DNA of 64,000 nt from positions 18,600,001 through 18,664,000 of the forward strand of contig JBHGNT010000017.1 in NCBI GenBank assembly GCA_043228905.1, given 5' to 3'. The notes below the pieces were generated by a model. It saw only the letters and a program-made list of their open reading frames with translations. It was not told the DNA's origin and ran no database searches. Below, piece after piece: positions 450-34,100 of this stretch. Both the position numbers and the translations under genes were made by a program. Positions within the stretch are counted from its first letter, which is position 1; each line of letters starts with the position of its first letter. Source of the stretch: Azolla caroliniana (Eukaryota > Plantae > Polypodiophyta).

Positions 450-920
450 TGTCACGAAAGGGTGGAATGAGGCTAAGTACTAAGAGAGAGCGAGAGCATA
501 AGCAAGATCACAAGATTGTCACGAACAAGTAGACGAGACTCAATATTAAGAGATAACGGGAGAGAGAGCATAGACAAGAGAACAAGCAAGAGAGAGAGAA
601 AATAGTCAAATGAACAAGAACTTAATTATGCTTTCGTAACTGGTGTTGTTCACCTTGATTGTAATCAAGGTGCACCACAATATTTATACAAGAATGTGGA
701 GGTATGCATGAAAGCTAGAAGACTTCTAGAGAGTGCATGAAGATGCATTCTCTAGAAGGTTCTTGAAAGTTCTGGTGATCAATCTATAATGAAATAAGTT
801 GAATCTTATACAATACAATAATGCATAGCCGGATGTACCTCAACTAGTAAGGTTTCTCAATAAGACCATAAGGTCATGGGTTCAACCCCCACCATTCCAT
901 GTGGCATCCTGTCTATGACA
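450..920 (-). mobile_element. 5' LTR of a Tcn1-like gypsy element, with PBS at 437-447
   Basis: TGTCA...TGACA termini; minus strand reads TGACA-GTTTGTTCACCTT, the same LTR/PBS junction as the element at 26142; TATA at 681-688. Confidence 0.75.
829..899 (+). ncRNA. tRNA-like (A-box/B-box) sequence within LTR U3, antisense to the element
   Basis: GGATG-TACCTCAACTAGTAAGG...GGTCATGGG-TTCAACC-CCCAC-CATTCC: D-arm-like A box, T-arm B box, tRNA length; degenerate, so not a functional tRNA call. Confidence 0.55.
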
Positions 921-1159
921 AGTAGATGCTCGATCATATTCAGCTGTTTGGTAGACAAGGGTTGGGCAATCGCCTTATGTTTTTACATCTACAAAGGATA
1001 CTATAGAAGCGCTTGGGAATAGCAAAAATAGAGTATATAAAGACCATCGTGTTTTATTCAAGGATTCCCATGTGGAAAAAAGAATAACAAGAGAAGTAAC
1101 ATCTTCTCAAAAGGAGAGACAAGTAGGTTTGACTAATAAGAGGTCTTCTCCATCTCAAT

Positions 1160-3540
1160 CTTGATATGGATTATTTTAACATTTTATCTTGGAACCTTCA
1201 AGGACTAGGTGTGAGCCGTTGTAATAGAGTAAAGTGTTACTTGAATCAAGAACAATCTCTATCTTCTATAGGTAGACTTGATATGGGATGTTTTCAAGAA
1301 CACCATCTTTATTCGTGAAGGATAGTGTCGATTAGAAATTTACTACGTGGTAGTTGGATTTATGAATGGGTTCCCAGTTTTTGGGCCCTCTAGTACTCAA
1401 GGTAGTCTGTGTATCGCACTCATAATGCAATGGTTGTCTCATGTGCAAGCTAATTCTTATTTCTGGTGGTGGTAGAGTTCAATATATGCTTAATATTCTT
1501 ATTTCTAGAAAATTGATTGGTTTTTTGAATGTATATGCTCCGAGTTCTGCTATTGGAAGAATTTGATTGTGGAATATGTTATTGCAAGACCTTCTTGTGG
1601 CACAACATTGATGTATGTGTGGTGATTGGAACATGATTGAAAGTCCTATTGATAGATTAGGTGGATCTTCTACTACTATCTCGGGTTTGGAATTGCATGA
1701 GTGGGAGAAATTAATTTTCAAATATGAAGTTACTTATTTGTGGCATATTCCTACTTTCTCTCACATGTCTGATTCCTTGTTATATTCACGTTCCAATCGA
1801 AGAAGTGACGCCCTCAATTTGTTTAGAATAGATAGGTTTTATGCAGATTCTTTTTTTTTGGGGATCGTGGAGGATATGTGGGTATTATATCAGGCACTTT
1901 TTTCTCTTATCATGCTCCGATTATGCTCAAATTCTATATGAACAACCATACTTCTATTTCTTGATTGTATGTGCCAAGGTTTATTGTTGATGATATGAAT
2001 TTGCAGCATACAGTCTTTTCACTTTGGAGAATGGATGTAGGGGATTCTTATTGTCATAAATGACAAAATGCACTTCTAGCAGTTTCCAACTTCTTTATAC
2101 AACAAGTTAAGTTAAAACAAAGTAATTACACTAGAAGTTTGTTGAATGCTAAGAGAAGTTTGGCTTCTCTTCAAATTTTGCAAGAAAAATAGCCTCATTC
2201 TCAATATATTCATTCTAAATTACAAAATGCTATGATGCTTATTTCTTCTTTGTAGCAAAAACGTGCTCAATTTTTTTTCAAGCATCTGCAGCAAGATGGT
2301 GTGCAAAAGGAGACACCATGTCAAATCTTTTTCCCCAACATGTTATGCCTAAAAGAAATAAAATTTAGATTGTGTAGTTGAAAAGATTTGACGGCATTGT
2401 CACAACGAATAGAGATGAAATGAGGCATATTGTAGCCGCTTATTATGAGTCATTGTTATCAATAGATATTCCAAGTGTTGAAACTCTACAGATGCGCCAA
2501 AAAGTATGGATTGGTATTGTGGTTAAGGTAACATCTTGGATATCGCATCAGCTTCTTCGTCCATTTTCCTCTGAAATATTGCAAACTATCAAAGGTGTTG
2601 GGCTAGCCAGATGTGTGCCCAGGAGTAGATGGAATGGGGAGAGATTTTTTCATTACATATTGGGATTTGATTGTTGATGATTTACTTGTAGGATTGATAT
2701 GCCTCATTCCAAAAGGTGATGTAGTTATGGATGACGTAAAGGGTTGGCGCCCCATTGCTACTGCGGTTAAGGCAACATCTTGGATATCGCATCAACTTCT
2801 TCGTCCATTTTCCTCCTTTGAAATATTGCAGACTATCAAAGGTGTTGGGCCAGATGTGTGCCCGAGAGTAGATGGAATGGGGAGAGATTTTTTCATTACA
2901 TATTGGGATTTGATTGTTGATGATTTACTTGTAGGATTGATATGCCTCATTCCAAAAGGTGATGTAGTTACGGATGACGTAAAGGGTTGGTGCCCCATTG
3001 CTACTGCGGTTAAGGCAACATCTTGGATATCGCATCAACTTCTTCGTCCATTTTCCTCCTTTGAAATATTGCAGACTATCAAAGGTGTTGGGCCAGATGT
3101 GTGCCCGAGAGTAGATGGAATGGGGAGAGATTTTTTCATTACATATTGGGATTTGATTGTTGATGATTTACTTGCTGGATTGATATGCCTCATTCCTAAA
3201 GGTGATGTAGTTACGGATGAGGTAAAGGGTTGGCACCCCATTACTCTATTAAATACAATTTACAAAATTTATGCTAAGTTATTGGCTTTGAGATTACAAT
3301 CCTTTCTTCCGGATATTGTGTATGAATCTCAGGCAGGATTTATGCAAGAATGTAGTATTTTTTATAATGTTTTTCTGTTCTGGGAATTAACAGGGATCGC
3401 AACGAAAAATAAAGAAGATATTGCAGTACTATTATTAGATTTTGAAAAAGCATATGACAAAGTTGATTGGGACTTCATGGAAGGTTCATTTTTGAGATTA
3501 GGTTTTCCGGTTCAATGGATTAGGGTTGTAGCTTCGTTGT
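1160..3540 (+). mobile_element. L1-clade LINE ORF2 relic (AP endonuclease plus N-terminal RT), truncated by an LTR
   Basis: Motifs ILSWNLQG, CGDWNMIE, RIDRFY, WHPITLLNTIYKI, LLLDFEKAYDKVDW across frameshifted ORFs. Confidence 0.85.
2521..3245 (+). repeat. Tandem triplication of about 243 bp inside L1 ORF2
   Basis: Unit GGTTAAGG...CCCATT starts at 2521, 2765 and 3008; visible as a repeated peptide in ORF 2613-3548. Confidence 0.95.
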
Positions 3541-3551
3541 TGTCGTAACTC

Positions 3552-3614
<63 letters not shown>

Positions 3615-3959
3615 GACAGGAAATGGAAATGGTATTATATTATGAGAAAACAAGGTTACAAAGAGTAGGCTAAGGGCTAAAGACTAGTGTTGAACCGAAT
3701 GAGTTCTGATGAATGTATAAACACCTATTTATAGATCCTTATGGAGTATTCTAGAATATTTTAGATATTTATGATAATAAATATAATCATGAAATATTCA
3801 AGAATGTTCTGGAATATTCTAAATATCTTGTAATCACTAAAAATATAATTATTATAACGACCCATCATATATATTATTACAATGGTTAAAGGTTCAATAC
3901 ATGGACCAAGAAGTTGTGGGTTCAACTCTTGATAAGCCAAAATGTATGTCTTCATGACA
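3541..3959 (-). repeat. 3' LTR of element A, with (GA)n tract, HSE array and tRNA-like module
   Basis: TG...TGACA termini; adjacent TTATCCCCCTT (PPT on minus strand); highly similar to 23553-23935. Confidence 0.85.
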
Positions 3960-4816
3960 TTATCCCCCTTCTTCGAGTTCCACGAGTCGGAAGACAAGAG
4001 TTCGGACTTGGTTTATGGGGATATTTATTGTGAAATGTAGCTACCATGTCGGAGGCATTAGCAAGATGCTCGACAAGCTCCCATGTTCGATCATTAGGTG
4101 TATAACTTAACCAATCAACCAGATAATATAGTTTGTTGTGGATGATCTTGGAATCGAGAATGGCAGCAACCTCATATTCAGAGCCATTGGAAAATTCGAT
4201 TGGAGGTGGGGGTAGTGTAAGACGACCCGAAATAGAGCTTGGTGTGTAGGGCTCCAAAAGTGAAACATGGAAGATAGGGTGAAGACGGATATGAGGAGGA
4301 AGATCAAGGTGAAATGTCACATCATTGATCTTACCAGAGATCACATATGGGTCGAAACATTGATAATCCAGTTTGTAGCAAGGTCGGGTGGTTTTAATGC
4401 TACCTTGTAAGAGCCATACTCCATCGCCAACATGAAATGTAGTCGATGAATCACGTCGATGACAATCAACAACCTTCTTATGAGTGGTTTGAGCATTACA
4501 TAAATAGTGCAAAAGTATATCCTAAACTTAACGGAGTTAGGTGAGCCAATCTTTAGCAATGTGGTTTGTTGGAAGTTCGAGATGTTCAAGCATTGTCCAA
4601 CGAGGATGGTACCCAATGTTCGCAAAAAATGGGGAATATCTAGTAGAAGAATGTTTGGAGTTGCTGTAAGTAAATTCCGCCAAATGTAATAGATCAACCC
4701 AATCATCTTGTTGATAGTTGACAAAACAATGAAGATAGTGTTCGACTTGTTGTTCATCTTGTTGATAGTTGACAAAACAATGAAGATAGTGTTTATCTTG
4801 TTGGTCTTCACTATCT
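3952..4816 (-). pseudogene. Integrase C-terminus with chromodomain (element A)
   Basis: [41 protein letters not shown]...YLVDW...TWE. Confidence 0.85.
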
Positions 4817-5165: not shown

Positions 5166-6110
5166 GAATAAAGAAAGAAGGAGAGAAAGAAACACGAATG
5201 CTATCAACTAAAGAGATAAATACGTGTTCGATTCCAACGCAAGAGGACCCTTTATAAAATAGGGTTTTGTTTACAATGGCAACTTATAGTTAACCACAAG
5301 CTCAATCAAAACATAAATATTAAATGCCCTTAGAGACAAAAGCAAATCCTAACACGGCGAAGATGAACACACGAGCACCACCAAAATGCCAATCCCGACG
5401 AACCACGACCACCTGAACGGTGAGCACAAGGGCTCGCAACGACGAACGGGGCGGAGCAACGTCAAACCAACGAAGCTTGGGCTCACGAGCACTTCAAGTG
5501 CCGACGCGAAGAAGACGAGCACGTGGCGATGGGGGGATGAAGGGGTATGAGATGAAGAGAAGTGGTGAATAAGGAGATGAAGAGCTTCGAAGGAAAATTG
5601 GCGATAGTCTCCTCCTCCCCAAAACGTCCTCTCAAATGAGCCCCCCTCGACCTCCTTTTATAGGAAAAAAAAGAAAGGGGGGGGTCGTCAAATTTGTCTT
5701 CAATGAAAAAGGAATAAAATTCCTTAAATCACATTGCATTGTAAGACTAGATTTGAACTATGCACCTACAACTAGTAGTCAATGTGACTATCCACTAGCC
5801 TACTAACTCTCTCTTGTACAATATATAATTCTATCTCTATAAATTTATAGCCTGTCTCCCCTCTACCCTTTATCTCTCCTCTCTCTTACTTTTTGCACGA
5901 GCTTCTATACCTCCTTTTTACCCTTTCTTTTCCTTTTTATTTTGCATATGCACAATTAATCGCTTTTGTGTGCACACACATTGCACGTGCACATTTTTGA
6001 ACCCCCCTTTCGCCGGTTTTTCCCACCCTCGAGCACGCCACATCACAACATCCACCCCCACTAAACCGCACATCCTCCGGTATGTGCCAAGAATGGCGGG
6101 CTGAGGGTGG

Positions 6111-9100
6111 TCAATAGTTCATTTCCTCCTCCTCATTGACCCCATGGCTTGTTGTTTGCTCGCCTTTATCTTCGTCAAGGTCATCGAGGTTTGGCTCCTT
6201 GTCGTGTCGCTTTTTGTAGATTTTGACCCGCTTCCTAGCTATTGGTACTGCCAGCTTAGTCCCATCGAGTTCAGCGAGGTGGTAGGTAGCATTATCGTTT
6301 ACACTCGTTACCACATACGGCCTGAACCATCGCTTTGCGAATTTCCGCATCGACCTATGTTGATTGTCGAGACTACTATCATATACAATCACCCAGTCTC
6401 CTTCTTCGATTTTCCGAGGGCGCAGTCGGTGTGTCTGGTCGAATCGGGCTTTGTTACTTAGCCTAGTCGCTTCTAACCTCTCCTTTGCCAACTCTAAGTC
6501 TTCGGGTCTTCTCTCAAGTTGCCTTATCCTTGTGGCTAGAAGCTCTTCTCGACTCATCTCGTTTTCCCACGGCATCGCTACCCATGAAGCGATCGTGTCT
6601 TCAATGGGCATCGCCGGCTTTTGTCCGTACATGAGTTCAGCTGGCCAACTCTAAGTCTTCGGGTCTTCTCTCAAGTTGCCTTATCCTTGTGGCTAGAAGC
6701 TCTTCTCGACTCATCTCGTTTTCCCACGGCATCGCTACCCATGAAGCGATCGTGTCTTCAATGGGCATCGCCGGCTTTTGTCCGTACATGAGTTCAGCTG
6801 GCATGAAACCTATAACTGAGCTATGAGTTGTTCTGTCGGCCCACAAGGCATAAGGTAATAACCGAGGCCAATTCCCGACTCGCCCATCACAAGCTCGCAC
6901 AATGGCTTTTACGATAGGCCCGTGTTCGCGTTCTATCTTTCCATTATCCTCCGGGTTATAAGCGGTCGTGAGAGAGAGCTTCACTCCAAGTCGGTCAAAG
7001 AGCTCTGTAGCTTCGTGAGCATTCAGCTCTCCTCTGTCGGCCACTCTCTTTCCCACACATCCGTACCGGCAGATGACATCCTCGAGTAAGAATTTACACA
7101 CCCCCGCCGTCGTTTTGTTTGCTAAGGCCCGCCCTTCTACTTGGTTTGTTAGGTCTTCTCTTGCTAGCACCAAATATTTCATTTGGCCCACTCCCATTCG
7201 AAACCAAATCCACCATCCATTTGAAGTGTATGGTGAGTGGGTAGGTCGGGTGCAACTCGTCCCTATGGCGTATGTTGGAGTGTATCTGGCAGCTTTCACA
7301 CGTCCCCACGAAATGGGCGACATCCTTGTACATTCCCGGCCACCAATACTTCTCCTTTAACTTCTCGAATGTTGCCCACGTTCCTCTATGGCCCGCCCAA
7401 GGACTCTCGTGGAATTTAGACACCAATGTTGTCTGGTCCTCTTCCTTTATGACCACTCGTTGTGGCGTCCCCGTCCTTCTCTTTGGGTGCCTCCAAAGGA
7501 ATCCCCCTCATAGGAAGTACTTGTACGCTTTCTTTCGGACTCTCTGTGCTTCCTGCTTCGACCATGAACTATCCACCGTCATTGAGCTTAAGAACTTGCC
7601 AATGTGTAGCCACTCCCCTTCGTATTCACTTTCGTTGAAGGCGTGGAGTACTCGCACATCTTGATCATCTATAGACGCTTGGGCCATCCTTAAGAAGTCA
7701 AGAGCGACATCCTCATCTTCAGACACCATGTCGCTTTCGCCCTCGAACCTTGCCCTTGATAGCATATCTGGCATGACATTGTTCTTCCCTGAAATGTGGT
7801 GAATCTCCAGGTTCATTGATTTGATGTAAGCAATCCATCTTAGCATAGCTAGGTCAAGCGTTGCACACCCCGAAACCATCCCTAGGATTGGAAGGCAATC
7901 CGTCCCTATTACCACCTCTGACCCGATTAGGTAATCTTTATCCGCCTTCACTGCGGACACAATATCCCAAAGCTCACGTTTTACTTGGGCGTATCCTCGT
8001 TGTCGCTCGCTTAAGACCTTGGCTCCGAACTGGATGGCATAGCGTGTACCATCCTCTCCTTCTTGGTTGATGACCCATCCGATCCCTGTTGGACTCGTAT
8101 CTACCGTCACGTAGATGGGCACCCCTTCCTTGTATACGAGTTTTCGTAAAGTTGGTGCCACTACCAACATTCCTTTGAGCCTCTTCATTGCCTTTGTGTG
8201 CTCTTCCTCCCACTTGAACTTCCGCCCCTTCTTGAGTATCCCATACAAGGACTCCGCTAGGTGAGCATAGTGTGGGATCCAGATGTGGTAGAATGCACAG
8301 GCACCAAGAAATCGCCTCACCTCTATTTGCGATTTACATTCTTCTCTCATGTCTATGATGGCGTCCACCTTTGCCGGGGATGGCTTCCGTCCGTACGCCC
8401 CGCACAAGTGTCCCACCACAAGGATCTCCAGTTGGCCGAATGTTGATTTCTCACCCGAGAAGGTCAAGCGTGCATCTTCGAGTCTTTGTAGAACCTTCTC
8501 GCAATCGGAGATGTGATATGCCACAAAACGTCTGCACCCATCCTCGTCCAAGGTTTCATCTTTCTCCGCTTCAGAGCACCCTTTTATGGGGATGTCATCG
8601 AGGAACGGCATGGTGATGTCAGGGATGCAATCTCTCAATACCTTGTTCATTGCATTTACCATGTGGGCTACAGAGTTAGTGCCTCCTTGTGGCAAGGTAC
8701 ACATTCGCACTAGGCCGATAGGGGTCCGCATTGTCGTGATGTCCCTACTCTCCACAGCTAGTTGGAATTGATCATACCCTGAGTATAGATCACCAATCGA
8801 ATAAATAGACCTTCCAGCGAAGGCCTCGGCGAATTCGTCAACGCTCGATCTGACCCCGAAATTTCGAATTGTCACTTGATTAATAGATTGTAGGTCCTGG
8901 ATGAAGCGTAATGTGTCGTTCTTCTTTGGCACAGTGAACCACCAATTCGAGTATGGGGCGCTTGATGGCTCGAGGATACCCATCTCGATCTTTTCCTTGA
9001 GTAGCTCAATCAACTTCGGGATGTCAGCTCTCGGAACAAGGATTGGCTTGATGTTCCACAGTACATGCGGCACCGTAAAGATCACCATTGGCTCCACGAT

Positions 9101-9763: not shown

Positions 9764-9769
9764 AAATCC
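9700..9769 (-). promoter_or_regulatory. Putative -1 ribosomal frameshift signal (G GAU UUU plus stem-loop/pseudoknot)
   Basis: Heptamer in ORF1 frame just before TGA; perfect 10-bp stem 9749-9758/9724-9733; pol lies in the -1 frame. Confidence 0.75.
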
Positions 9770-12224: not shown

Positions 12225-12630
12225 AACATGAATGTCGGTACGTCTTTATGAGGAGGAGAGGTGCATGGGCACGCCTGAATGCTCCCTCGTCACAAGACGT
12301 CGAACGTACGAGGAAGACACAAAACACATGCACAAAATGCTCATACACCTTTATGAGGAGGAGAGGTGCATGGGCAAGCCCGAATGGTCCCCTCATCACA
12401 AGACGGCCGAACGTACGAGGAAGACACAAAACACACACACAAATGCGCGTATGCCTTTATGAGGAGGAGAGGTGCATGGACAAGCCCGAACGGTCCCCTC
12501 GTCACAAGACGGCCGAACGTACAAGAAAGACACAAACGCACGCACAAAATGCTCGTACGCCTTTATGAGGAGGAGAGATGCATGGGCAAGCCCGAACGGT
12601 CCCCGAACGTCACAAGACGGCCGAACGTAA
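12225..12630. repeat. About 106-bp tandem repeat array in the 5' LTR of element D
   Basis: Unit starts at 12291, 12397, 12503, 12611. Confidence 0.9.
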
Positions 12631-13803
12631 CCACAAGCTCAATCAAAACATAAATATTAAATGCCCTTAGAGACAAAATCAAATCCTAACACGGCGAAGA
12701 TGAACACACGAGCACCACCAAAATGCCAATCCCGACGAACCACAACCACTCGAACGGCGAGCACAAGGGCTCGCAACGACGAATGGGGCGGAGCAACGTC
12801 AAACCAACGAAGCTTGGGCTCACGAGCACTTCAAGTGCCGACGCGAAGAAGACGAGCACGTGGCGATGGGGGGATGAAGGGGTATGAGATGAAGAGAAGT
12901 GGTGAATAAGGAGATGAAGAGCTTCGAAGGAAAATTGGCGATAGTCTCCTCCTCCCCAAAACGTCCTCTCAAATGAGCCCCCCTCGACCTCCTTTTATAG
13001 GAAAAAAAAGAAAGGGGGGGGTCGTCAAATTTGTCTTCAATGAAAAAGGAATAAAATTCCTTAAATCACATTGCATTGTAAGACTAGATTCAAACTATGC
13101 ACCTACAACTAGTAGTCAATGTGACTATCCACTAGCCTACTAACTCTCTCTTGTACAATATATAATTCTATCTCTATAAATTTATAGCCTGTCTCCCCTC
13201 TACCCTTTATCTCTCCTCTCTCTTACTTTTTGCACGAGCTTCTATACCTCCTTTTTACCCTTTCTTTTCCTTTTTATTTTGCATATGCACAATTAATCGC
13301 TTTTGTGTGCACACACATTGCACATGCACATTTTTGAACCCCCCTTTCGCCGGTTTTTCCCACCCTCGAGCACGCCACATCACGACACCGTGATAGCGAA
13401 ACACCTCCCGCATGAGTAAATCGGTTGTCTCATGGCTAGTAATGGTCTTCGTGCATGGACGGAAATGCGCCATCTTCGTAAAACGATCTACTACTGTGAA
13501 AATAGAATCAAAAACCTTTGAAGGGGGAAGATCCGTAATAAAGTCCAAGGAAATAGATTTCCATGGGCTCTCAGGAATAGGTATTGGCTGTAATAAGCCA
13601 TATGGTGATGTCGAGGCTTTTTTTATCAGCAACATGTATCACAACTACGAACATAATCCGTAACAAAATGGTGAAGCCGTGGCCACCAATATCGGCGAGA
13701 AATCAACTCAAAAGTCTTGTGGATGCCAAAATGTCCAGCCATTGGTGTATCATGACATTGTTGCACGACTTTGAGTCGAGAAGGACCGTTCAACACATAC
13801 AAG

Positions 13804-15581: not shown

Positions 15582-15586
15582 ACAAG

Positions 15587-18800: not shown

Positions 18801-18954
18801 ATGTCGAGCTCAGAAAGGACACGCATATATTCTTGCTTGCTGACGAACTCCATAATTGAGAGGGAAAAAGAAAGAAGGAAAAAGAAGAAAGCTTGCTAGG
18901 GTTATTGGAAGAGGGAAAAGAAAGAATTCGGTTCAAACTGTCATGACTCGTGAG

Positions 18955-21900
18955 TAGGAGATAGATAGATAGATAGATTATATTATCGTCTTCGGAGGTC
19001 AATTATGACCTATGAGACCAAAAATATTACATTTCACGTGATACGTGTGAAAGTGAGTAGTGACTCTCGATGTTCAAGAACTTTTCCAATGAATGTTGCA
19101 ATCGAGAGGGCACATTGTGGTTGTGAGAGGAATTCATGCAAAGATTGGGCTCGTTCGAAGAGATGTGGAAAGCATGGTCGAATATGATCAAAGGTAGAGC
19201 ATTGTATCAAAGTGTGATACTCAGACTCACGAACTTGTTTAGGTCAAAGTGTGCATAGCCGACCACTCTCATCACTTGTGCCCCAACGCCATGTTTCACA
19301 TCACAATGCATGTGAGCTAAGTCACATGGAAGCAATGGTTCGAATGGCAGATAACAGTATGGGCTCTAACATGTATCGATGTGCACAATTTCCCCATTCC
19401 GCAAAGAATATGGTTTTGTAGTTAGGTGCAACATCTGTAGTATAATGTATGAAGCGCGAGCCTCCACATTTGTCCCATGTCATGATACATTGGCATTGCA
19501 AAAAGGCCTCATTTATAGAGGAATCTAATGATGTATCATGAAGCAAGTGCCTCGCATCCCATCTACCAAACCATTTTTCTATATCTTGCATCCAACCAGA
19601 ACACAAAATTTTTCTTTTATGCGTCTTTTGGATCTTTTTGCTTGCTTCCCACGCAATTCTAGGAAGTCGATGTGAGGGACTTTTTTGAACCTTAAGCATG
19701 TATTCAACAACCCTTTCCATGGCCATGATCTCAATGGGAAGCAATCCCGTCTCAAGGAGGAGGAGGGTGTAGGGCGTTTGTTTCTTAACTTGTAGAAACT
19801 TTATAAGAAAATGTTTTCAAACATTTTCAAACTCTTTCCACATAGATTTAGGGATGCTACCGCCCCGTACTTCCACCCCATAGAGAAGAATTGGTGTCAC
19901 CAAAATGTCGAAAAGATATTTCTTGAGGACCCAACACTTAATATCTCCAAGATTGCATAGTGTAGCACATTCATTCCATCTATGATTTGAAGCAACTTCA
20001 AGGCCAAGATATTTGAATCTTTCCACACATTCAAGTGGCTCATTGTTGTACATAATGCATGGTTTATCTCTTTTTTGGCTCTTCACAAGCATAATCTTTG
20101 TTTTAGAGCTATTGACACTTAATTTAGTATGCATGCAAAAAAATCCAATGCCTTCATAAGCTTTTGTGCATCTCCTAAAGTATTTGCAAAAAACACTACA
20201 TCATCTGCATATAACAAAAGCATAATCACAACATTCCCAATGGCAACTTCTTCAACACAATCTTCCTTTGCAAACTTGGTAACCATTTCTTCCAATTCAT
20301 CAATGCATAGACCAAATAGTGTTGGTGAGAGTGGGCATCCTTGGTTAACACCAATAGTGCTTTTGAAAAAATCTGAAAGTTTATCTCTCATGCGCACACA
20401 ACATATAACCTTCTCATAAATTCGGGAAATTGCAAGCATATATTCACTTGGCACCTCAAGTTCTTCCATTCGTCTCCAAAGATGCTCACGAGCTACCATA
20501 TCAAAAGCTTTCTTGAATTCTACAAAGCAACAATATAAACCTTTACCTCTAAGGTGACTTTCCTCCATTAATACTCGAAGGGTGATAAGGTGATCAATGG
20601 TGTTATGGTGTTTCCAAAAGCCAGCTTGTCCATAAGCTCTCTTACCATTATTTTCAGCCCATACAGTTATCTTTGATTCCATTATACATCCAAATAGTTT
20701 TGCCATTAATGAGCCAACCATGATGGTTCGATAGTTGTTTACATTATTTATATCTCCACCTTTATGTAAAGGTTTGATCCAATTTGTAGTCCAATCGTAC
20801 GGCATACCATGTTGTAATGCATCATTAAACATATCTCTTATCCATATATGTGCTTCCTTTCCCGTCCATTTGAGCATTTAAACCTTTATACATTGAAGAT
20901 CGCTTGTCTTTCGAGAGGCCAATTTGTTAAGTCCTATGCATATATCTTCAATTGTAAAGAAGGGAGGCATATGTGAAAGAGAACTATAACACATCATCTT
21001 TCCGACAAGAGATAACTCATATAAATTCTTACAATGCATAGACAAGTCGTGAAGAGTTAAGTCACCATAACTATCAACACGTTTCCCCTTTAGATTTCCC
21101 CAAATTTTAGCACATGCATGTGCTTTCTCTTGCGTTTGGATAAATTGTTGAGTAACTTCCCATATTCTTCTCTTTCTTTGAATAAGCCTTTTATACTCAT
21201 GCAAATGCTTTTGGTAATTCTCTTTATCCTTAACTACATCCAAAACCACAAGGCACTTTTGAGTTTCACGACATTCTTTATCAAACCATTTTTTCCTATA
21301 AGGCACTTTTGAGTTTCACGACATTCTTTATCAAACCATTTTTTCCTAAGTTTCTTGGTGCATTTCCAAGATGTGCGGTTGGTCGAAAAACATTTGTTTG
21401 TATAGGAGAGAATGACTTTCTTGAAAGCTTCCCATTTGCATTCTAGTGTGGCACCATGTTGTATCTTTGTCATTTGTAACATATCCTCAACCATCTTGGA
21501 ATACATGGGTGCTCGCTTAAGGTTCATGCTCAAGTGTGGTTGTTTATTATCTTCAGTAGCCTTCTCACAATCAAACCTATGCATACATTTGAGATCAATA
21601 CATAAAGGCCTATGATCGGATTCCGGTGTCCATTCACCAAGTGAGAATTTATGTATACGATCCAAAATACCTTTGGAAAGTAGCACATGGTCAATCACAC
21701 TATTTCCATTGTGTTTTCTACATGTAAAACCATTAGTGTTGGGCCATAAGGAAATACCATTTGCAATAAGCAATCCGGTACTATTGCACATTTGTAGGAG
21801 TAACTTCCCAAATTGGTCCGGATCTTTTTCATCGCTAGAAGAGCGGCTATACATTTGCATATCCTCCTGCATCCTTGAGATATGTGGCATGAAAGATTCT

Positions 21901-23551: not shown

Positions 23552-23552
<1 letters not shown>
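18955..23552 (-). mobile_element. Near full-length RTE/RTEX-like LINE with ORF1 and ORF2 (APE-RT), inserted at the (GA)n tract of an LTR
   Basis: Coiled-coil ORF1 23288-22419; APE motifs CFWNGNG, LVETWE, FGDMNAR, SDH; RT motifs QGCPLSP and LLYADD; C-terminal Cys/His region; (TATC)n 3' tail near 18960-18978. Confidence 0.8.
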
Positions 23553-23590
<38 letters not shown>

Positions 23591-26543
23591 GGGAAATGAT
23601 ATTATATTATGAGAAACAAGGTTACAAAGAGTAGGCTAAGGGCTAAAGACTGGTGTTGAACCGAATGAGTTGTGATGAATGTATAAACACCTATTTATAG
23701 ATCCTTATAGAATATTATAGAATGTTCTAGAATATTTTAGATATTTATGATAATAAATATAATCACGAAATATATTCAAGAATGTTCTAAAATATTCCAA
23801 ATATCTTGTAATAACTAAAAATATAATTATTATGGCTACACCATATATCTTATTACAATGGTTAAAGGTTCAACACATAGACCAAGAAGTTTTGGGTTCG
23901 ACTTCTACTAAACCAAAATGTATGTCTTCATGACACCACTCACATGTACAACGAGAAAAAATAAAACTCACTTCTCTTTATTATGACAGATAATATGCTT
24001 CTTACTCCCACACCATTTACCCTTGTCCTTAGATTCCAAAAATAAGGTAATTGCTTCATTTTCTCTAATTTACACCAATAGACCTATAGGACAACCCTGA
24101 TTCCTAAGGTCCTTGTACTATAGAATTGTAAGATAGGAACGGAAATGCGATCAAATAAAATAGCCCTCCTCGACCCTCAATAATATGCTTCTAATCTCCA
24201 CACCATCAACACTCACTCGCCTATTAGCACCAAAATCCTTGTAAGAGAATACGTTGTGCAGAAGCGTATGCGAAACACAGAGTACACAGTTCGGAGAACT
24301 CAGAAAACACAGAGATGGAGATGGAGAGAGAGAGAGAGAGAGAGAACAGACAACTCAGATTTATTTCAAAGTAATGACTCTCTATACATAAAACGTGCTC
24401 AACCACACAATTTATACAAGTCCTAAGAGGACTGACAGGAGTACCGCGTACTTCAATGCTCATACGAGCGTTTGACACTAACTACGAGACTATTAACTAC
24501 CTAGTAGTCTAGGCTACTACTAGGCTTCTGGTTACTGTTTGATCTAGCTAACCGGCTCCCCAGCTCACCGGCTCGCCGATCCGGTTTCATCCTTCTGGAT
24601 GCCGATCCGGATCCGGTTGAGCTTGCCGCTCAACACTCCCCCTCAAGCTCAACTTGAGGTCGGATCGTAGTGTCAGTCTTCATGGCAACCGGTCCTTCCA
24701 CTAGGCTCCTTCTGGCATCACTCCACCTCGCTCGCGCTCCTTGCCCGGTCTGGTCCCGTTTGTTGTGACCCCTCTGGCTCTGCGCGCCTCAACCTCCTCG
24801 GTCGGCTTGTCTGCTCAACATGCCCAATTCAACTCCCTCGCTGTTGTGACTTCGGCTCTTGCCGATTCGTTGATTCCTTTGTGTTGGCGTCGACTTTCAC
24901 TGCCTTCTCATCCTCTTGGCCTTGAATTGATCTGATTCTTCCGAATCCGTCTGTTGACCCAAATCGGTTGTCTCCGATTCGTTCCATCTCTTGTCTGAAT
25001 CGGTTACTCCCGATTCGTCTTCCGGTTCCAAGCACTTCACCTCATCGGACCATGTCCGGATCTTGGCCTTCTTCTTCCGGTCGGCTCTGTCCTTCTTGAC
25101 TCTGCCGCCACTGTCGCTTGTTCCGACTTGTTCGGATGTGTCAACTTCCTTTGTCGACTCGGATCCTTTCTTCTTCTTGTCTCTCCCCTTGTCAGTTCTT
25201 CCCTTACCGGCGCAATCAACAGTCTCTTTGCCTTTGCCCGTTCCGGTGTCGTTGCCCATTCTCCCCCTCAAGTATGGCACGTCAAGATGTTGAACACCAA
25301 GCATTTCGATGAAGTGTTGCAACTTGTCCAATCCAAGCGGTTTGGTGAAGATGTCGGCAACTTGCCAATCCGTATGAACATACCGAAGTTCGACTTCACC
25401 GCTCAAGACACGCTCACGCATGAAGTGGTAGTGCACTTCTATGTGCTTTGTGCGAACATGGAATACGGGGTTCTTGGCGAGCTACATGCTACTTATGTTG
25501 TCACAGTAGATCAGGATCGGGGTTGGCACCTCGATCTGCAGGTCCTGTAGCAATCGTCGAAGCCAAATTGGCTTCACAAGTGGCAACAATAGCGCCCCGG
25601 TATTCAACCTCAGTGCTCGAAAGGGCCACTGTTGGCTGCTTTTTGCTGCTCCACGCAACAGCCGCCCTACCAAGGGAAAACATATAGCAAGAGGTGGATC
25701 GGTGATCCGATGCATCGCCGGCCCAGTCGGCATCGGTGTAGCCGACGAGCTCTTCGGTTATACCATGCCGGTATAACAATCCTCGGTCCTTCGTGCCGCT
25801 CACATATCGCAAAATTCGATGTGCGCACAAAAGGTGCTCCACGGTTGGCTTCTACATATATTGGCTAATCACGCCGACTGGATAACTGATGTCGGGTCGG
25901 GTAATTGTCAAGTATATAAGGCTTCCGAAAATTTGTCAGAACCGCTTCTCATCGCAAGCCGGTCCGGAGTCGAGACGGAGCTTCTGGTTCCGGTCTAAGA
26001 GTGTGGAGATCGGTCGGCATTCCGTCATGCCGAACTTGTACAGCATATTCAACACATAGTGTCTTTGTGAGACCAATATGCCGTCGGGGGTTCGGATCAC
26101 CTCGATCCCAAGGAAATAGTGAAGGTCCCCCAGGTCCTTCATGTCAAGATTCGAACTCTTGACACGACCATGTTATAATCTAGTATTATGAGTTAACCAA
26201 GATATCTAGTACTAGTTATGTATGTAATTGGTCCTTATTATTTTGCTAGCATCATGTGCATAGTTGCTCCCTTGTAGTATTTACACTTGGCACATGCATG
26301 CATACCTACATGCTCTATTGTAGATTCACATGCGTGCAACAAGTATGCATGCCATGTAGTATAAATAGAGGAGTTCACCTTGAAGGAATTCAAGGTGAAC
26401 AACACCAGTTATGGAGTCTTTCCTTTAATACTATCTTCTTTCTTGTCCATTTGGTTATCTTCTTGCTTGTCTCTTGAGCTTATGATCCGTGACAGTTTGT
26501 TCACCTTCCATCTTCATAGCTCTCCCTCTCATAAGCCATAGCT

Positions 26544-27560
26544 ATGTCCGACTCAACTAGTGAGTTAGGCCAAATAAGGGTAGCCTTACGACAACTGCAG
26601 CTTGAAAATGAAGCTCTTCGAAATTCTTTACAAGAACTTCAAGTCGGTACCTCCCTATCCTCACAACCCCCGAACCCTAGTCTCCCACAACAACCTAGCC
26701 TAGAGCCCGATCTTCTACCAACATCTAGCCTAGCTTCGTCACAGTTTCTTGAGCCTAAGGTTAGCCTCCCAGAAAAATTTGATGGAACGAGGTTGCGTTT
26801 CCGAGGGTTCATCAACCAAGTTCGACTTATCATTCGGCTACAACCTCAACGTTATGGAGCTGGTCTTCGACAAGTCGGCCTTGTGGGCACCCTTCTCTCC
26901 GGTCCGGCCCAAGCTTGGTATGCACAATTGGTAGAAACCTCATCACCTTTATTGGAGGACTTTCCCACCTTCCTCGTCGAGTTAGAGGCCACATTTGGAG
27001 AGACGGACCGACGACGTACAGCTCTTAACAAGATTTATGCACTCGAACAAGGTTCACATGCAACTTCGGTCTATGCTTCCGAATTTCGACAACTAGCATG
27101 CGACGTCAATTGGGATGATCAAGCTTTAGCTGATCACTTTCGGCGCGGCCTTCGAAGCAATGTCAAGAATCTTCTCTTAAACTTTCCGGAGCCCACCTCG
27201 TTATCCCAAGCGATTTCACAAGCAGTCCATTGTGACAATTGTCTTTTCGAATTTCGCCAAGAAGAGCGCCGGACTTGGGTTCCACCTCATTCACTTCCAC
27301 GCCACACCCCGGTCATACAACCCCAAGCATCCTCACACTCGCCTACTTCGGCAGATGCTCCTGTCCCCATGGAAATTGATCAAGCCCGATTTCAGCCATT
27401 GACTGATGCTGAACGACAATTTCGGCGGGCTAATGGCTTGTGCATGTATTGTGGCGCCTCCGGTCATGTCGTTCGCCATTGTCCTAGGAGTACTCGCCCA
27501 CAATTCCATTGAGCTAACGAACCCCAACATCCGGAAAACGACATCGTTCGGTTGCAATAG
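26544..27560 (+). pseudogene. Gag of element C (premature TGA at 27510; probable natural stop at 27558-27560)
   Basis: PEKFDGTR, PVPMEID, CMYCGASGHVVRHC zinc knuckle. Confidence 0.85.
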
Positions 27561-27586
27561 GAGCCATGCAACTGGACATCTCCCGT
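27533..27586 (+). promoter_or_regulatory. Putative -1 frameshift signal (G GAA AAC plus pseudoknot), element C
   Basis: Heptamer in gag frame, 6-nt spacer, 11-bp stem 27546-27556/27567-27577, loop GGAG pairs with CTCC 27580-27583; protease lies in the -1 frame. Confidence 0.75.
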
Positions 27587-30500
27587 CGCCCACATTCTCT
27601 TGGTTCCATTGCCGGACCATCAGGCAATTTCACATTGGAGGTATGGCTTTCGTTTAACTCTAGTTCCATTCAGTCTGTTGCTTTACTTCATTCTGGGGCA
27701 TCTTCTTGCTTCATCGACGTCGCGTTTGCCCAAGCACATGGAGTACCTATCGTTGCCTCTCAAAACCCATTCCAGTTGAAGCCATCGACGGGTGCGTCCT
27801 CTCGTCAGGTGCAATTACTCAAGCTACAATCCCATTAGGGCTTCGGGTGGGCTCACACCAGGAGGAGCTCACCTTTTACCTCATCGCATCTCCTCGACAT
27901 CCGATCGTCTTAGGACTAACGTGGTTGGAGGCGCACAATCCAATAGTGGATTGGTGCAACCACTCGATCACATTTAGCAAGCCAAGATTCTCGTGCAAAA
28001 GTATGAAAGTAAATTTAGTTTCCTATCCTTCGGAGACGGTCGACTCCAAATTGACTACCCCAGCATCGGTCCAGGATGGGTTTGTTTGTGGCGCCATTTC
28101 TAACACACTCCATGTTATTCCCGAAAAATACCAACACTTCTCCGACGTATTTGAAAAATGTAATGCTGATCGTTTGCCTGAACACTAGCTCTACGACTGT
28201 CCGATTGATCTTCAAGAAGGTGTGTGTCCACCCTTTGGTCCTCTATATGCGTTGTCTGCACCAGAGTTGAAGGCCCTTCGTGTGTATCTCAATGAGAACC
28301 TCGAGAAAGGATTTATTCAACCTTCTAAGTCACCAGCCGGGGCCCCCATTTTATTTGTGAAGAAGAAGGACGGCTCTCTACGCTTATGCGTCGACTACCG
28401 AGGTCTCAACAAACTCACTGTGCGCAACCGCTATCCGCTACCTCTGATCCCCGAACTACTTGATCGGCTCCGAGTTGCGCGTGTCTTCTCCAAAGTCTAT
28501 CTACGTGGAGCGTACAATCTAGTACGCATCAAGCCGGGGGATGAATGGAAAACCGCATTTCGAACACGGTATGGGCATTTCGAATACAAGGTAATGCCTT
28601 TTGGTCTTACTAACGCTCCCGCAGTTTTTCAACATATGATGAACGATATTTTCCGGGAATATCTTGATCTTTTTGTTGTCATTTACCTCGATGATATTCT
28701 CATTTTCTTGCCAAACATGGAGGAGCACACTCGCCAAGTCCGATTAGTTCTTGCCAAACTTCGCGAGCATGGCCTTTATGCCAAAGGCGAGAAATGCAAG
28801 TTCGACCGTACCTCGATCGAATTTCTGGGCTACATCATCTCGCCCACTGGCATCACCATGGATATGAAGAAGGTCTCTATCATTCAGGCGTGGGCGACTC
28901 CAAGGCGACTTAAAGATGTGCAATCCTTCCTCGGCTTCGCGAATTTTTACCGTCGCTTCATCAAGGGGTTTTCCACCCTAGCACAACCTCTTATCGCTCT
29001 CACCCATAAAGGCACTCCATTTTTATGGACCTCGGAGGCACAAAATGCGTTCGACTCACTCAAACACGCATTCATCACTGCCCCGGTGCTGCTACATGCC
29101 GACCCCACAAAACCCTTCCAAGTCGAAACCGATGCCTCTGACTTTGCCATTGGCGCCATCTTATCCCAGGCAGACAACAACAACCTAATGCACCCAGTGG
29201 CTTACTATTCCCGAAAATTTACGGCATCCGAAATCAATTATCCCATTTACGACAAGGAGCTTGCTACTATCATTGTTGCCTTTGAAGAATGGCGACCCTA
29301 CTTGGCCGGCGCACAACATCGTGTCCAGGTAGTGACTGATCATAAAAATTTAGTTTATTTTTCCACCACTCGTACATTGAATCGAAGGCAGGCCCGTTGG
29401 TCGACATTTCTTGCCGACTACGATTTTGAGATCGTATTTCGACCTGGTGGCCAACATGGGAAGGCTGATGCCCTTTCTCGCCAAGCTGACCTTGCACTCC
29501 ACCCTGGGGATGTTGCTTATGCTCAACAATCTAGACGTTTGTTGAAACCCGACCAATTGCATCTTTTTGCCACTTGTATGTTGCAGGATGATTCTTTACT
29601 CCAACAAATCACTACTGCATCCAAGACCAATGCGTTCGCCAACGAGATTCGAGATAGTCTGCAAAACCCCTCCAAGGCGACCAAAAGGAAGGATCTTGAC
29701 ACCTTCACCATACAAGAGGGTTTGTTGTTCCGAGATCATCTCTTATACGTCCCAGAGGGCCCATGTCGCACCCGGGTGTTGCGAGAATGCCACTATGACC
29801 CACTTGCAGGTCATTTCGGGGTCGCGAAAACCCTCGAGCTAATCTCTCGGGGGTATTGGTGGCCACAACCATGGAAGCTGGTCAAAGAATACATAAAGAG
29901 TTGTGAGGTTTGTGCTCGCTCCAAAGCCATTCATCATCGGCCATACGGCTTACTACAGCCACTTCTATGTCCTCGTCGTCCTTGGGCCTCTATCTCTATG
30001 GACCTGATAACTGATCTACCCTTGGTCAATAGCTATGACTCAGTGTTGGTCGTTGTCGATTGGTTTACGAAGATGGCTCACTTCACTCCATGCTCCAAAA
30101 CCATTTCCGGAGAAGGAATGGTGCATCTCCTACTCAACAATGTGGTACGCTTGCATGGACTCCCCGACGATGTCATCTCGGATCGCGGACCCCAGTTTGT
30201 CTCTCACTTCTGGCAGCGCCTGCTACAAAATTTAGGCATCTCTGTCAAGTTGTCCTCCGCTTATCACCCCCAAACTGACGGGCAAACGGAGCGTATCAAC
30301 CAAATCCTTGAGCAGTATCTTCGGTGCTCGGTTAGTTACCAACAAGATGATTGGGTCAACTTACTTTCGCTCGCGGAATTCGCCTACAATAATTCTCTCC
30401 ATGCATCAACTGGTGTCACTCCCTTCTTTGCCAACTACGGTTTACATCCTCGCTTCAACATTTCCCTTCCTACCACTTCCGTGAACCCTTCGGCGGAGGA

Positions 30501-31113
30501 TCGCGCCCGCATTTTGGAAGAACTACATCATGATTTATCCTTGGAGCTCAGTCTTGCTAGTGAACGATACAAGACGCAGGCTGATCGCCATCGATCTTCC
30601 ACTCCACACTTTGTCGTTGGAGACATGGTCTGGTTGTTACGTCGACACATCTCTACTACTCGTCCATGTGCGAAACTTGATTACAAGAAGTTGGGACCAT
30701 TCCGTATCATCGAGTGCATCAATCCCGTCGCCTTCCAGCTCGCCCTTCCATCCCACTTCCGGATTCACGATGTTTTTCATGTCTCCCTCCTCGAACCCCA
30801 TTATGCTTCACAACTCCCAGGACGTCAAGCCCCACCACCACCACCTGTGCAATTGACGATAGGGGAGGAATACGAGGTCGACCAAATCCTTAACTCGCGT
30901 TGGCACCGTCGACACTTGCAATACCTCGTCCTATGGAGGGGTTACCCCATGTCTGAGGCCACATGGGAACCATCGGCAAATTTACAAAATGCCCCAGAGG
31001 TCGTCCAAGATTTTCATCACCGATATCCCCACAAACCAGTGGCCGATTTGGGAAGGCGGCGTAGGAGGGGGGATAATGTCAAGATTCGAACTCTTGACAC
31101 GACCATGTTATAA
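27539..31113 (+). pseudogene. Pol (PR-RT-RH-IN-chromodomain) of element C; 963-aa open segment 28222-31113
   Basis: YLDD, ETDASDFAIG, SDRGPQF, HPQTDGQTER, chromodomain EYEVDQIL...YLVLWRGY...ATWEP; lesions in PR and RT. Confidence 0.9.
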
Positions 31114-34100
31114 TCTAGTATTATGAGTTAACCAAGATATCTAGTACTAGTTATGTATGTAATTGGTCCTTATTATTTTGCTAGCATCATGTGCATAGTT
31201 GCTCCCTTGTAGTATTTACACTTGGCACATGCATGCATACCTACATGCTCTATTGTAGATTCACATGCGTGCAACAAGTATGCATGCCATGTAGTATAAA
31301 TAGAGGAGTTCACCTTGAAGGAATTCAAGGTGAACAACACCAGTTATGGAGTCTTTCCTTTAATACTATCTTCTTTCTTGTCCATTTGGTTATCTTCTTG
31401 CTTGTCTCTTGAGCTTATGATCCGTGACACTTCATCTCAAATGCATCCGACAATTGGGACTTGACTCGGTTGATTTCATCAAGTCCGGGTCCAGTGATGA
31501 CTAGATCATCAACATACAGTGAGATGCAAACCGGACCGTCTGGACCTTGCCGGATGAACAACGAAGAATCGGACTTGGAGGCCGCAAACCCCATCTTACG
31601 CAACCGGTGCCTGATCTTCGCATTTCAAGCTCAGGGGGCTTGCTTCAGGACATAAAGTGACTTCTTCAGCCAGCATACCGCCAACTTGTTCATCTCCTTC
31701 TGGAAACCCGGAGGTTGGGTCATAAAGACCTCTTCTTCAAGATCTCCTTGAAGAAATGCATTCTTCGCGTCCATCTGGTGAAGATGCCACTCCCTTGCCG
31801 CAACAACCACCAGCACCACACGAACCGTCATCATCTTCGCTACTGGGGCGAAGGTCTCATCGTAGTCGATTCCGTGGGTCTGCGCGTATCCCTTCGCCAC
31901 TAACCGGGCCTTGTACCGGTTAACCGATCTGTCGGCATTGTACTTTACTTTGTACACCCACTTACATCCGATCAGTTTACAGTGTCGGGGAGGGTCAACT
32001 AGGTCCCATGTGTTGTTGGCATCAAGTACTCGCATTTCTTCCTCTATAGTGGGACACCAATTTGCATCCTTTGCCGCTTCTGTGTAGCTCTCCGACTCAC
32101 GCACTTCTGCCACCCTGGTCATGTACGCATAGTGATGCGCCATGTACTCATTGTAGCCATACCACTTCACGGGGTTCTTCGGCCAGGAACACTGGCATAA
32201 CCTATCGTTACCCGGTTTGAGGCCCTTCTTGGCCGGTTCGAACTTCATTATCGAAGGTCCACCTTCAACTTTTCCGGAGTAGGATTCGCTCCGATCCGAC
32301 TCAACGTTGCTGGTTTCGTATTCTGGCATCTTCTTCTTCCCCTTCTCTTTGCGCATGAACCGTCTCCTCAGTTCCTTGCGTGGTGAGAGCACGGCAGAGT
32401 CTCCATTACTCGCCGGCTCCTCATCTAACTGGTCATCCCGACTCAGTCACTCGTTCGGTCCACTCAACCGAAACGAATTAGGACTCTCATCATCTAGAGT
32501 CTCGAACCCTTCATCTTCTAACTGGACCGGTTCAAGCTCACTAGCCTCATCCTCTAATATCGGGTCGGGGTCAGAAGTCGGAGCCGGTAAGGCATACCAT
32601 GATGCCGTCTCATCAAACTCAACATCCCTGCTAACTCGGACCTGCTTCGTCCGAGGGTTATAACACTTGTACCCCTTTTGCTCATGTGAGTAACCGACTA
32701 AGATGCACTTCTCCGACTTTGCATCCAACTTCCTCCGCTTATCATCCGGTACATGCACATATGCAATGCTACCGAATATCCGAAGGTGTTTCAAATTTGG
32801 CTTGCGCCCGAAATACAACTCATGCGTGGACACCTTGTCACCAATTCAGTTTTGGATGTAGACGACCGTCTGGACCGCCTCCGCCCAGTAGAAATGGGGC
32901 ATGCTCTTCTCTTCCAGCATTGCCCTTGCCGCGTCGACGATCGACCGGTTCTTCCTTTCGGCCACACCATTTTCTCCGGTGTGTATCTGCAGCTGAACTC
33001 TCTCCGAATTCCTTTTTGCTGCAGATAACCATTGAATTGGCCGGAAAAATATTATTTTCCGCCATCCGACCGCAAGCACTTGATCTTCCTCTCTATTTCC
33101 CGTTCAACTAGGTTTTGCAGGTTTCGGAAACACTCGAAGAATTCGCTCTTCCGCTCAATGAGGTAGATCCATGTGTGCCAACTGTAGTCGTCGATGAAGG
33201 AGACGAAATATCGACTCCCGCCAAGACTCACGTTCTGTGCCGGTCCCCATACATCCGAATGGATTAGATCGAGCTTGTTACGGCTCCGGTTTCGTTCGGT
33301 GGGGAATGGAAGCCGGTGTTGCTTCTAGAGTTGGCAGGCTTCACATATTTTAGCCTTCTGACCACTGAACTTCGGCAAACCGAAAACAACTTGTTTCGTT
33401 TGCAAGTCTTGAAGCCTCCGGTAATTGATGTGGCCGATCTGCTTGTGCTAGAGATCAATATCCAACTCAATCTTCTGTCCTTTGGTGAACAAAGCGGTGC
33501 CGACGTCATTGGTGTCGAGGATAAACATCATCCCGTCTCTGCGCCCTTGCGCAATGATTTGGCCCTCTTCCTCGATGAAGCACCCTAGGTGCGTAAACCA
33601 CACCTGCATCCCATGGTCGACAATCTGTCCAACCGACACCAAGTTGTTCATGATGGTCGGAACGTGTAATACGTTCATCAACTTCCCCCTCTGTCCGACG
33701 TGGCTCAAAGGGACTTCTCCGATATGCACGATAGGGTGTGGAGTGTCGTCTCCGGTTTCGACAAGTCCTGGTTGTTCTGATTTCTCCAAGAAGGAGAACC
33801 ACTCTCTGTGGCTCGTCATGTGATTTGATGCACCAGAATCAACATACCACACTTCCTCCGATTTGGAAGTGGTCTTCTTCATTGAGTTAGCTTTGTGTTT
33901 CATCACCAAGGCTGGCCCTTTACCGGCTTTTCCGGTTTTGGATCCTCCCGATCCTTCTGCGTAGTGCGAGTATTGCTGGTTCTCTCTGTCGGCCTTGCCG
34001 GATCCGGATCTGTCCGAATCGGCGTGCTTCTTCCAGCACTCCCTTTCTCTATGGCCCTTTTTACCACAGTACCAGCATTCCATGTCGGCCTTTGCTTGCC

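Follow-up and report, generated by a model that had tools for sequence, protein, structure and literature searches.

Antisense A-box/B-box units of probable tRNA origin at the outer LTR edge of Tcn1-like chromoviruses in the fern Azolla caroliniana: candidate TFIIIC docking sites

Pol III promoter parts in LTRs are known from TRIMs, elements without coding capacity whose transcription they presumably drive. The Helenus TRIMs (TRIMp3; Kojima, 2024, PMC10886601) are described as having tRNA-derived sequence in the LTR, as do the elements reported here; however, Helenus elements are non-coding, 311–1263 bp long and equipped with a tRNA PBS, whereas those studied here are coding chromoviruses of 5.3 kb that have a TATA box and a self-priming PBS. 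Besides, the Helenus module was proposed to drive its own transcript, whereas the module found here is antisense and has a degenerate A box. According to the same source, whose analysis covers TRIMs only, “not a few” LTRs in Repbase resemble part of a tRNA, and Cassandra and Ajax likewise keep Pol III promoter motifs in the LTR. The latter two are 5S rRNA-derived, non-autonomous TRIMs, in contrast to the coding elements with tRNA-derived sequence found here, and Cassandra is transcribed from a 5S-type promoter with a terminator that the modules described below do not have (PMC10886601). As for the element type, the plant Tcn1 chromoviruses of the Tf1/Sushi group share with our elements an RT-RH-IN-chromodomain pol, a PPT, TG...CA LTRs, a 5-bp TSD and predicted self-priming, but they were placed in mosses and club-mosses instead of a fern, and the passages describing them make no mention of a tRNA-like U3 module (PMC6317226, PMC2864245, PMC3350952).

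The stretch of DNA analysed (64,000 nt of A. caroliniana contig JBHGNT010000017.1, hereafter the window) was found to contain four Tcn1-like families, A to D, with the following features.

450–920, minus strand: family A 5′ LTR with TGTCA...TGACA ends, followed by a self-priming PBS and the start of gag
829–900, plus strand: family A module; A box from 836, B box 879–889
3541–3959, minus strand: family B 3′ LTR, adjoining a PPT and an SH3/chromodomain frame (3955–4521)
3868–3940, plus strand: family B module; A box from 3875, B box 3919–3929
13762–14242, minus strand: family C 3′ LTR, after a PPT, nested inside a family B integrase frame
14150–14220, plus strand: family C module; A box from 14157, B box 14200–14210
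15510–15590 (approximate limits), minus strand: family C 5′ LTR remnant, U5 only, without module
18920–18975, minus strand: family B LTR tail and PBS, the latter an 11-nt complement to the LTR, 33 nt past the TATA box
23552–23935, minus strand: family B LTR, U3/R part (B′), 88.5% identical to the copy at 3541–3959
23844–23916, plus strand: B′ module; A box from 23851, B box 23895–23905
26142–26494, plus strand: family D 5′ LTR, 353 nt, same sequence as the 3′ LTR; TSD CTTCA; TATA box at 26360
26142–26215, minus strand: family D module of the 5′ LTR; B box 26147–26157, weak A box 26197–26208
26497–26507, plus strand: family D self-priming PBS, 11 nt complementary to 26392–26402, 32 nt past the TATA box
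26535–27512, plus strand: family D gag frame
27664–31113, plus strand: family D pol with protease region, RT, RNase H, integrase, SH3_Tf2-1 and chromodomain
31077–31429, plus strand: family D 3′ LTR, after a PPT
31077–31150, minus strand: family D module of the 3′ LTR; B box 31082–31092, weak A box 31132–31143

Element D, with 5,288 nt and both gag and pol, is not a short non-coding TRIM. Its RT/RNase H/integrase/chromodomain pol is complete and interrupted by a single stop (28186–28188, between the protease region and RT), and family B shows SH3 and chromodomain. The segment at 18920–18975 probably belongs to the LTR at 23552–23935 as its 3′ part, split off by a LINE. In A, B and D the PBS is self-complementary to the element's own LTR over 11 nt, 32–33 nt past the TATA box, and the decayed copy of family C retains 6 nt of self-complementarity only; these Tcn1-like families thus likely prime themselves. 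In trees built without reference Tcn1 sequences, the elements grouped with fungal and unnamed chromoviruses.

An A-box/B-box unit at the LTR 5′ end was found in all six intact ends of the four families within the window, at the places and on the strands originally given, always antisense to the element and facing outward. The B box (G53, T55, C56, A58, C61) is recognisable in each of these six ends, with C61 altered in B′. The statement that every Tcn1-like LTR has the unit holds for intact ends; a seventh LTR, the C 5′ remnant, has lost its U3 and has no module. The module does lie near the LTR edge, but the distance of at most about 25 nt first given was inexact, as the gap between the terminus and the end of the B box is 5 nt in D and 30–32 nt in A, B, B′ and C. 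Position and orientation are common to the diverged families. The U3 regions are not otherwise as dissimilar as had been stated: the B LTRs match C-family LTRs with 68–71% identity over 149–231 nt of inner U3. The module +1 lies 133–176 nt from the TATA box in the 12 LTRs in which this could be measured. Four further module-bearing families were found on metagenome contigs, giving a total of eight families and 14 modules, with a terminal segment beside the module of 5 to 48 nt.

Chance likeness was ruled out as an explanation by a shuffle test and by leave-one-family-out recovery. A PWM trained on 30 bacterial tRNAs, in which scoring D starts one base off, gave 20.0 (A), 12.0 (B), 11.4 (B′), 22.0 (C) and 12.0 for each D module, scores reached by 0, 0, 2, 0, 2 and 1 of 300 dinucleotide shuffles, respectively, and the same PWM gave −6.3 to 1.2 on the sense strand. 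With the spacing held to 40–50 nt, C and A had the top two PWM scores in the window and D dropped to 6.3. A CM built from bacterial tRNAs only ranked module A first in the window (15.5 bits, E 0.031), B′ second and C tenth. Leave-one-family-out profiles recovered 14/14 modules (B 26.7, B′ 27.4, D 20.0), with 0–1 of 125,768 background positions scoring as high, and in leave-clade-out scoring this was the case for 0–7 background positions. The scoring with tRNA models and with left-out families upholds the shared position and orientation, and supports a derivation of the modules from tRNA as judged from their sequence. BLAST of module A against phages gave chance matches only; the L015 module matched the T arms of annotated tRNA-Ile and tRNA-Arg with E 0.2–0.6, too weak for an isotype, and scans of viral_contigs gave 0 loci.

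The description of the unit as tRNA-like was borne out for sequence and spacing and not for the fold, since the stems have decayed. Pairs were formed at 43/77 acceptor (chance 0.55), 31/60 anticodon (0.57), 31/48 D-stem (0.59) and 27/48 T-stem positions (0.40), compared to 0.995 in real tRNAs. ARAGORN found 0 tRNA genes, its 137 calls in the window with lowered thresholds being noise, and Rfam RF00005, by which the modules were to have been scored, gave no tRNA match at E≤10 in the window, with module A alone or in eight loci. A tRNA gene with a cloverleaf was therefore rejected, the acceptor and anticodon stems being at chance and both programs blank. The modules share no consensus structure; T-stem covariation was absent (312/500 shuffles as high), and no covariation of the Levitt pair (15–48) was seen by eye. 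The promoter-box residues, on the other hand, were retained across diverged families as predicted: cross-family identity (eight families, 28 pairs) is 0.69 in the boxes and 0.31 in the spacer. Out of 14 modules, B-box and T-loop residues are present in 13 (G53), 14 (T54), 14 (T55), 13 (C56), 14 (R57), 14 (A58) and 12 (C61), and A-box/D-loop residues in 13 (T8), 13 (R9), 10 (A14, absent in 3/4 D/E modules), 11 (R15), 12 (G18) and 14 (G19), counts that are inflated at the B-box and GG positions, which served as anchors. The G18–T54 distance is 35–37 nt in 12/14 modules (36–37 nt in 25/30 tRNAs); the family D spacer is 7 nt longer than in its relative L001. The boxes would seem to be under purifying selection.

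The explanation that we prefer, at roughly even chances, is that the antisense unit acts as DNA, as a TFIIIC docking site. Coding Tcn1-like chromoviruses hold a tRNA-derived A-box/B-box unit at the outer U3 edge, box residues and spacing being retained while the stems have decayed. The unit, which stands back-to-back with the TATA box of the Pol II promoter, would recruit TFIIIC, a Pol III factor, so that this promoter further inward might be shielded from silencing or held open. We infer TFIIIC binding with weak or no productive Pol III transcription. TFIIIC recognises A and B boxes (PMC13578239), and TFIIIB/C function as barriers in yeast (PMC9540200); in the literature found, such TFIIIC activity was documented for yeast and animals, and no paper reported it in plants. 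An insulator role of the module, as originally proposed, is plausible, and a barrier function against flanking heterochromatin is speculative. A point against the docking model is that part of the conserved letters can form hairpins with the LTR terminus; for example, the family D B box (26147–26157) sits in an 8-bp terminal hairpin. tRNA-processing nucleases would cut a sense tRNA-like stretch in the element's genomic RNA, and one may speculate that the unit is antisense because this avoids such cutting.

Rather unlikely, in our judgement, is an active type-2 Pol III promoter whose antisense RNA regulates the element or opens chromatin by transcription, running from the 3′ LTR through the PPT into the chromodomain region and from the 5′ LTR into host DNA. 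Both boxes are at tRNA spacing, and AT content at −20 to −35 is 0.62–0.94, higher than in inner U3 in 11/12 LTRs and equal within rounding in 1/12. However, G10 of the A box is present in 4/14 modules and lost in 10/14, and CAA occurs at −10 to −3 in 1/12 only. No conserved oligo(T) terminator was found: T4 first occurs at +73 to +284, or is absent within about 400 nt (5/15 contexts), so that no defined Pol III product is expected, and the defined antisense small RNA suggested earlier is disfavoured. From two runs guessed to be RNA, 3 and 0 contigs were obtained; none of them covered the module, and no conclusion on expression follows from this.

Conservation within families and distribution bear on a further explanation, also unlikely, by which the module is a relic, neutral and without a current role. 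The head of a tRNA or SINE would have been caught on one or two occasions, and LTR copying as well as recombination between co-resident families would have spread it. Contrary to the prediction, conservation within families was no higher in the boxes than in the adjoining U3 (80/100 versus 428/544 in inner U3, p = 0.44; versus 96/127 in the spacer, p = 0.27), as expected of a relic. In favour of the docking model, among family D copies in two DNA runs no variant of at least 2% was listed in 26142–26179 compared to four spacer sites, which are small numbers. The module was found neither at 56 LTR starts outside the two clades (maximum score 12.3) nor at those LTR ends of Copia and non-chromovirus elements that were scored within the window. 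A single clade of the two lineages bearing it was rejected (AU p = 2e-82). In clade II, L004 is without module and L003 retains no more than a trace (0.9 and 8.4). L006/L009, the sister group, have none either; the module is therefore dispensable. Its loss or decay in L003, L004 and L017 would fit a relic, and similar modules in the PR-RT linker of L020 suggest recurring captures. Nevertheless, decay that randomised the stems and the spacer should have erased boxes and spacing too, and both persist in eight families.

The U3 half of the bipartite PBS of Ty3 binds tRNAiMet at its T and D arms (PMC5371799). By analogy the sense RNA of our elements, with its complementarity to both arms in a host tRNA, could anneal to such a tRNA in dimerisation, packaging or strand transfer. 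U3 location and antisense orientation agree with this and the complementarity to both arms is shared, but Ty3 is tRNA-primed and has short complementary blocks, whereas the elements here are apparently self-primed and keep whole-tRNA spacing (PMC5371799). With an 11-nt self-priming PBS in A, B and D no tRNA primer would be needed, only 5/21 deviations at invariant positions are tolerable by G·U wobble, and the T-stem letters vary widely among families, which makes this role improbable. Very improbable is a terminal hairpin or attachment-site structure beside the PPT with incidental tRNA likeness: perfect terminal stems of at least 6 bp occur in 6/14 module LTRs compared to 7/58 others and TTCGAA is palindromic, but the stem partner differs among families, and A-box residues, fixed spacing and recovery by tRNA-only models are left unexplained. 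As to a landing pad, the only interruptions seen are those in the L017 spacer and, in L001, some 100 nt upstream of +1, which lends this idea no support.

Returning to TFIIIC docking, an antisense, structure-free A/B unit is kept by at least eight coding families from two separate lineages, which points to a job on DNA different from that in TRIMs. More tentatively, and less likely than not, two unrelated autonomous chromovirus lineages in the same plant group may have captured tRNA promoters independently and kept the TFIIIC-reading boxes antisense at the LTR edge as a portable chromatin barrier, by which heterochromatin-targeting elements would stay transcribable. If so, plants would have a mobile TFIIIC insulator in large copy number. 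Should TFIIIC bind, one could test directly by which means chromodomain elements remain active in heterochromatin, and whether TFIIIC sites serve as barriers in plants too. Module-bearing LTRs also scatter candidate TFIIIC sites through the genome. The yeast ETC sites and the S. pombe B-box boundaries are experimentally shown TFIIIC-only barrier sites, and like the modules they combine a strong B box with a weak A box and no clear transcript; however, those are fixed chromosomal sites in yeasts, whereas the modules are mobile, lie in a plant and are known from sequence.

The window was found to be a repeat-rich plant region (GC 41.5%) containing four related Ty3/gypsy families, A to D:

Family A: 5′ LTR and gag start
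3541–3959: family B, 3′ LTR
23552–23935: family B, second LTR (B′), with its tail near 18940 on the other side of a LINE
13762–14242: family C, 3′ LTR; the C 5′ LTR is cut down to U5
26142–31429: family D, full element with gag and pol; its two 353-nt LTRs are identical and the TSD is CTTCA

The pol of family D was shown to contain RT, RNase H, integrase, SH3 and chromodomain, with a single stop (28186–28188) between protease and RT, and this young element was inserted in a Copia element (24237–35311). Deep nesting was seen at about 3541–23935, where an internally deleted C element (13762–15590) lies within the integrase of B, B also contains a non-chromovirus gypsy element (LTRs 5291–6050 and 12628–13387) with 106-nt tandem repeats flanking it, and the LINE splits a B LTR at a microsatellite of that LTR. 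An 11-nt complementarity between the PBS region and the LTR, 32–33 nt after the TATA, was present in A, B and D, and a self-priming layout of this kind is predicted for Tcn1 in the available text of PMC6317226. The families were labeled Tcn1-like because of this self-complementary PBS and the domain and LTR layout, rather than from a tree with reference sequences. Plant Tcn1 is placed in mosses and club-mosses in the consulted parts of three papers (PMC6317226, PMC2864245, PMC3350952); if the host is a fern, the range of Tcn1-like self-priming elements reaches past these groups. The closest named relatives by identity of a flanking LRR-kinase exon (58400–58771) came from Adiantum (85%) and Ceratopteris (84%), both ferns, so that from this one gene a fern is the likely host. 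A long hairpin of inverted microsatellites, (GA)n…(TC)n, was seen upstream of this gene (54219–54436), with Rfam miRNA matches below threshold only.

As originally noted, a tRNA-like A-box/B-box module, antisense and pointing outward, was present at the LTR 5′ end in all six intact ends of the window. A covariance model (CM) and a PWM were trained on 30 bacterial tRNAs and nothing else. The CM gave 10 matches in the window at E ≤ 10, with module A ranked first (15.5 bits, E 0.031), the B′ module second and the C module tenth; the B and antisense D modules were absent from these 10. PWM scores of the six modules were 11.4–22.0, A and C being the best two sites of the whole window, and D was weakest (6.3 at spacing held to 40–50 nt). 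Only 0–2 of 300 shuffles scored as high as each module. The description as tRNA-like held for box sequence and spacing and failed for the fold, as pairing in the acceptor, anticodon and D stems was near chance and neither ARAGORN nor the proposed Rfam scoring found a tRNA in the window.

Related loci were taken from a pol C-terminus scan of metagenomes (best 80 of 545 confirmed loci) and genome bins (48 loci). The eukaryote-type chromovirus sequence inside the 48 prokaryotic bins (L081–L128) is most likely contamination. The LTR start was located automatically in 65/128 loci and through a second pattern in 4 more. Among these best 80 and 48 bin loci, the module was present in L001, L002, L005, L007, L015, L018, L020, L023, L029 and L033, interrupted in L017, a trace only in L003, and absent from L004. 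A profile trained without the tested family recovered 14/14 modules, with 0–1 of 125,768 background positions scoring as high (0–7 when trained on the other module-bearing clade only). The highest score was 12.3 among the 56 LTR starts outside the two clades (of 71 scored) and 1.1 among the window's scored LTR ends of Copia and non-chromovirus elements; scores of the 30 bacterial tRNAs were 12.4–31.6. The tRNA model gave 12 matches over 24 loci, of which five were LTR modules (L015, L007, L018, L020, L023) and two were similar antisense modules in the PR-RT linker. In L020, antisense tRNA-like A/B modules of two related elements were seen in the protease-RT linker, within the pol frame:

999–1070 (−): extra module, CM 9.2 bits, module profile 24.3
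6323–6391 (−): extra module, CM 13.0 bits, module profile 17.0

No linker module was found in the two window protease-RT linkers examined (B-type and D). Besides, antisense tRNA-like boxes were seen in two distant chromoviruses, in the 3′ UTR of L074 about 170 nt before the PPT (about 3025–3100, −; profile 20.6) and downstream of the LTR TATA in L105 (about 3310–3365, −; profile 18.8); neither was matched by the tRNA CM or Rfam, and both are weak leads. In P0037, a clade I relative, a dUTPase domain separates protease from RT.

In a quick pol tree (980 columns, 66 rows), in which several rows were linked to LTRs only by 81–85% similarity and many had no known LTR, module-bearing families formed two groups, B/C/L015/L023 and A-like/D/L002. 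The latter was placed in a branch of support 99 that also contained the module-free L004, elements of the L009 type and one protein bearing the name of the chytrid Powellomyces. After removal of 25 long-branch or redundant rows, a single clade for both groups was rejected (p-AU 2e-82), as was a wider grouping (p-AU 0.011), the tested groups having been defined only after the trees were seen. Thus, either the module was gained twice, or lineages exchanged LTRs, or one old gain was followed by many losses.

T-loop and D-loop invariants were kept in 10–14 of the 14 modules except for G10 (4/14), the counts for the B box and GG being inflated since these were alignment anchors. Stem pairing was near chance for the acceptor (43/77 vs. 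0.55), anticodon (31/60 vs. 0.57) and D stems (31/48 vs. 0.59) and modestly above it for the T stem (27/48 vs. 0.40), which showed no covariation; RNAalifold gave no consensus structure among the modules. Identity across eight families was 0.69 in boxes and 0.31 in the spacer between them. The G18–T54 distance was 35–37 nt in 12/14 modules, the terminal segment varied from 5 to 48 nt, and the tRNA-trained PWM, left free over 40–50 nt, on its own picked 43–44 nt in 10 of the modules.

Because box residues and spacing were retained while the fold was lost, a reading as a DNA element is preferred over RNA. Chromodomains direct elements to heterochromatin. The module, as a DNA element read by TFIIIC, would provide a putative docking site shielding the adjacent Pol II promoter, whose TATA lies 133–176 nt from the module's presumed Pol III start in 12 measurable LTRs; from sequence, we give this role about an even chance. 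TFIIIC is described as reading A and B boxes in the accessible part of PMC13578239, and silencing spread in yeast as limited by TFIIIB/C in that of PMC9540200. An active antisense Pol III promoter is unlikely: the A box is poor and no conserved terminator was found among the modules, which disfavors a defined transcript. CAA was found just before the module's presumed start (−10 to −3) in 1/12. The prediction that boxes are more conserved than neighboring U3 was not upheld within four family pairs, several copies of which are old and decayed (80/100 vs. 428/544 in inner U3, p = 0.44); nor did boxes exceed the spacer there (96/127, p = 0.27). In two DNA runs, family D copies showed no variants of at least 2% in 26142–26179, four in the spacer, and 7 variant sites plus 5 indels in 26210–26340, and a separate listing gave one A-box variant (26201); this distribution is suggestive only. 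A neutral relic, on which these comparisons bear, ranks next and is improbable. Pairing with a tRNA as in Ty3 is doubtful and lower still, as just 5/21 deviations were wobble-compatible. Perfect 6–8 bp fold-back stems were seen at the LTR terminus of D (26142–26164), L002, L004, L005, L015, L023 and L029. Such stems lie directly after the PPT (6/14 module LTRs vs. 7/58 others), and a terminal hairpin as the explanation is very improbable.

In the literature searched, which included few subscription papers, no account was found of such a module in Tcn1 elements or in any other plant LTR elements with coding capacity. The nearest known kind is Helenus/Cassandra, which the available portion of PMC10886601 treats as non-coding TRIMs, mentioning without analysis a likeness to parts of tRNAs in other Repbase LTRs. 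Judged from its sequence, the module described here is real, its functional role being putative, and it is new as a coding-element counterpart to the Helenus/Cassandra theme.
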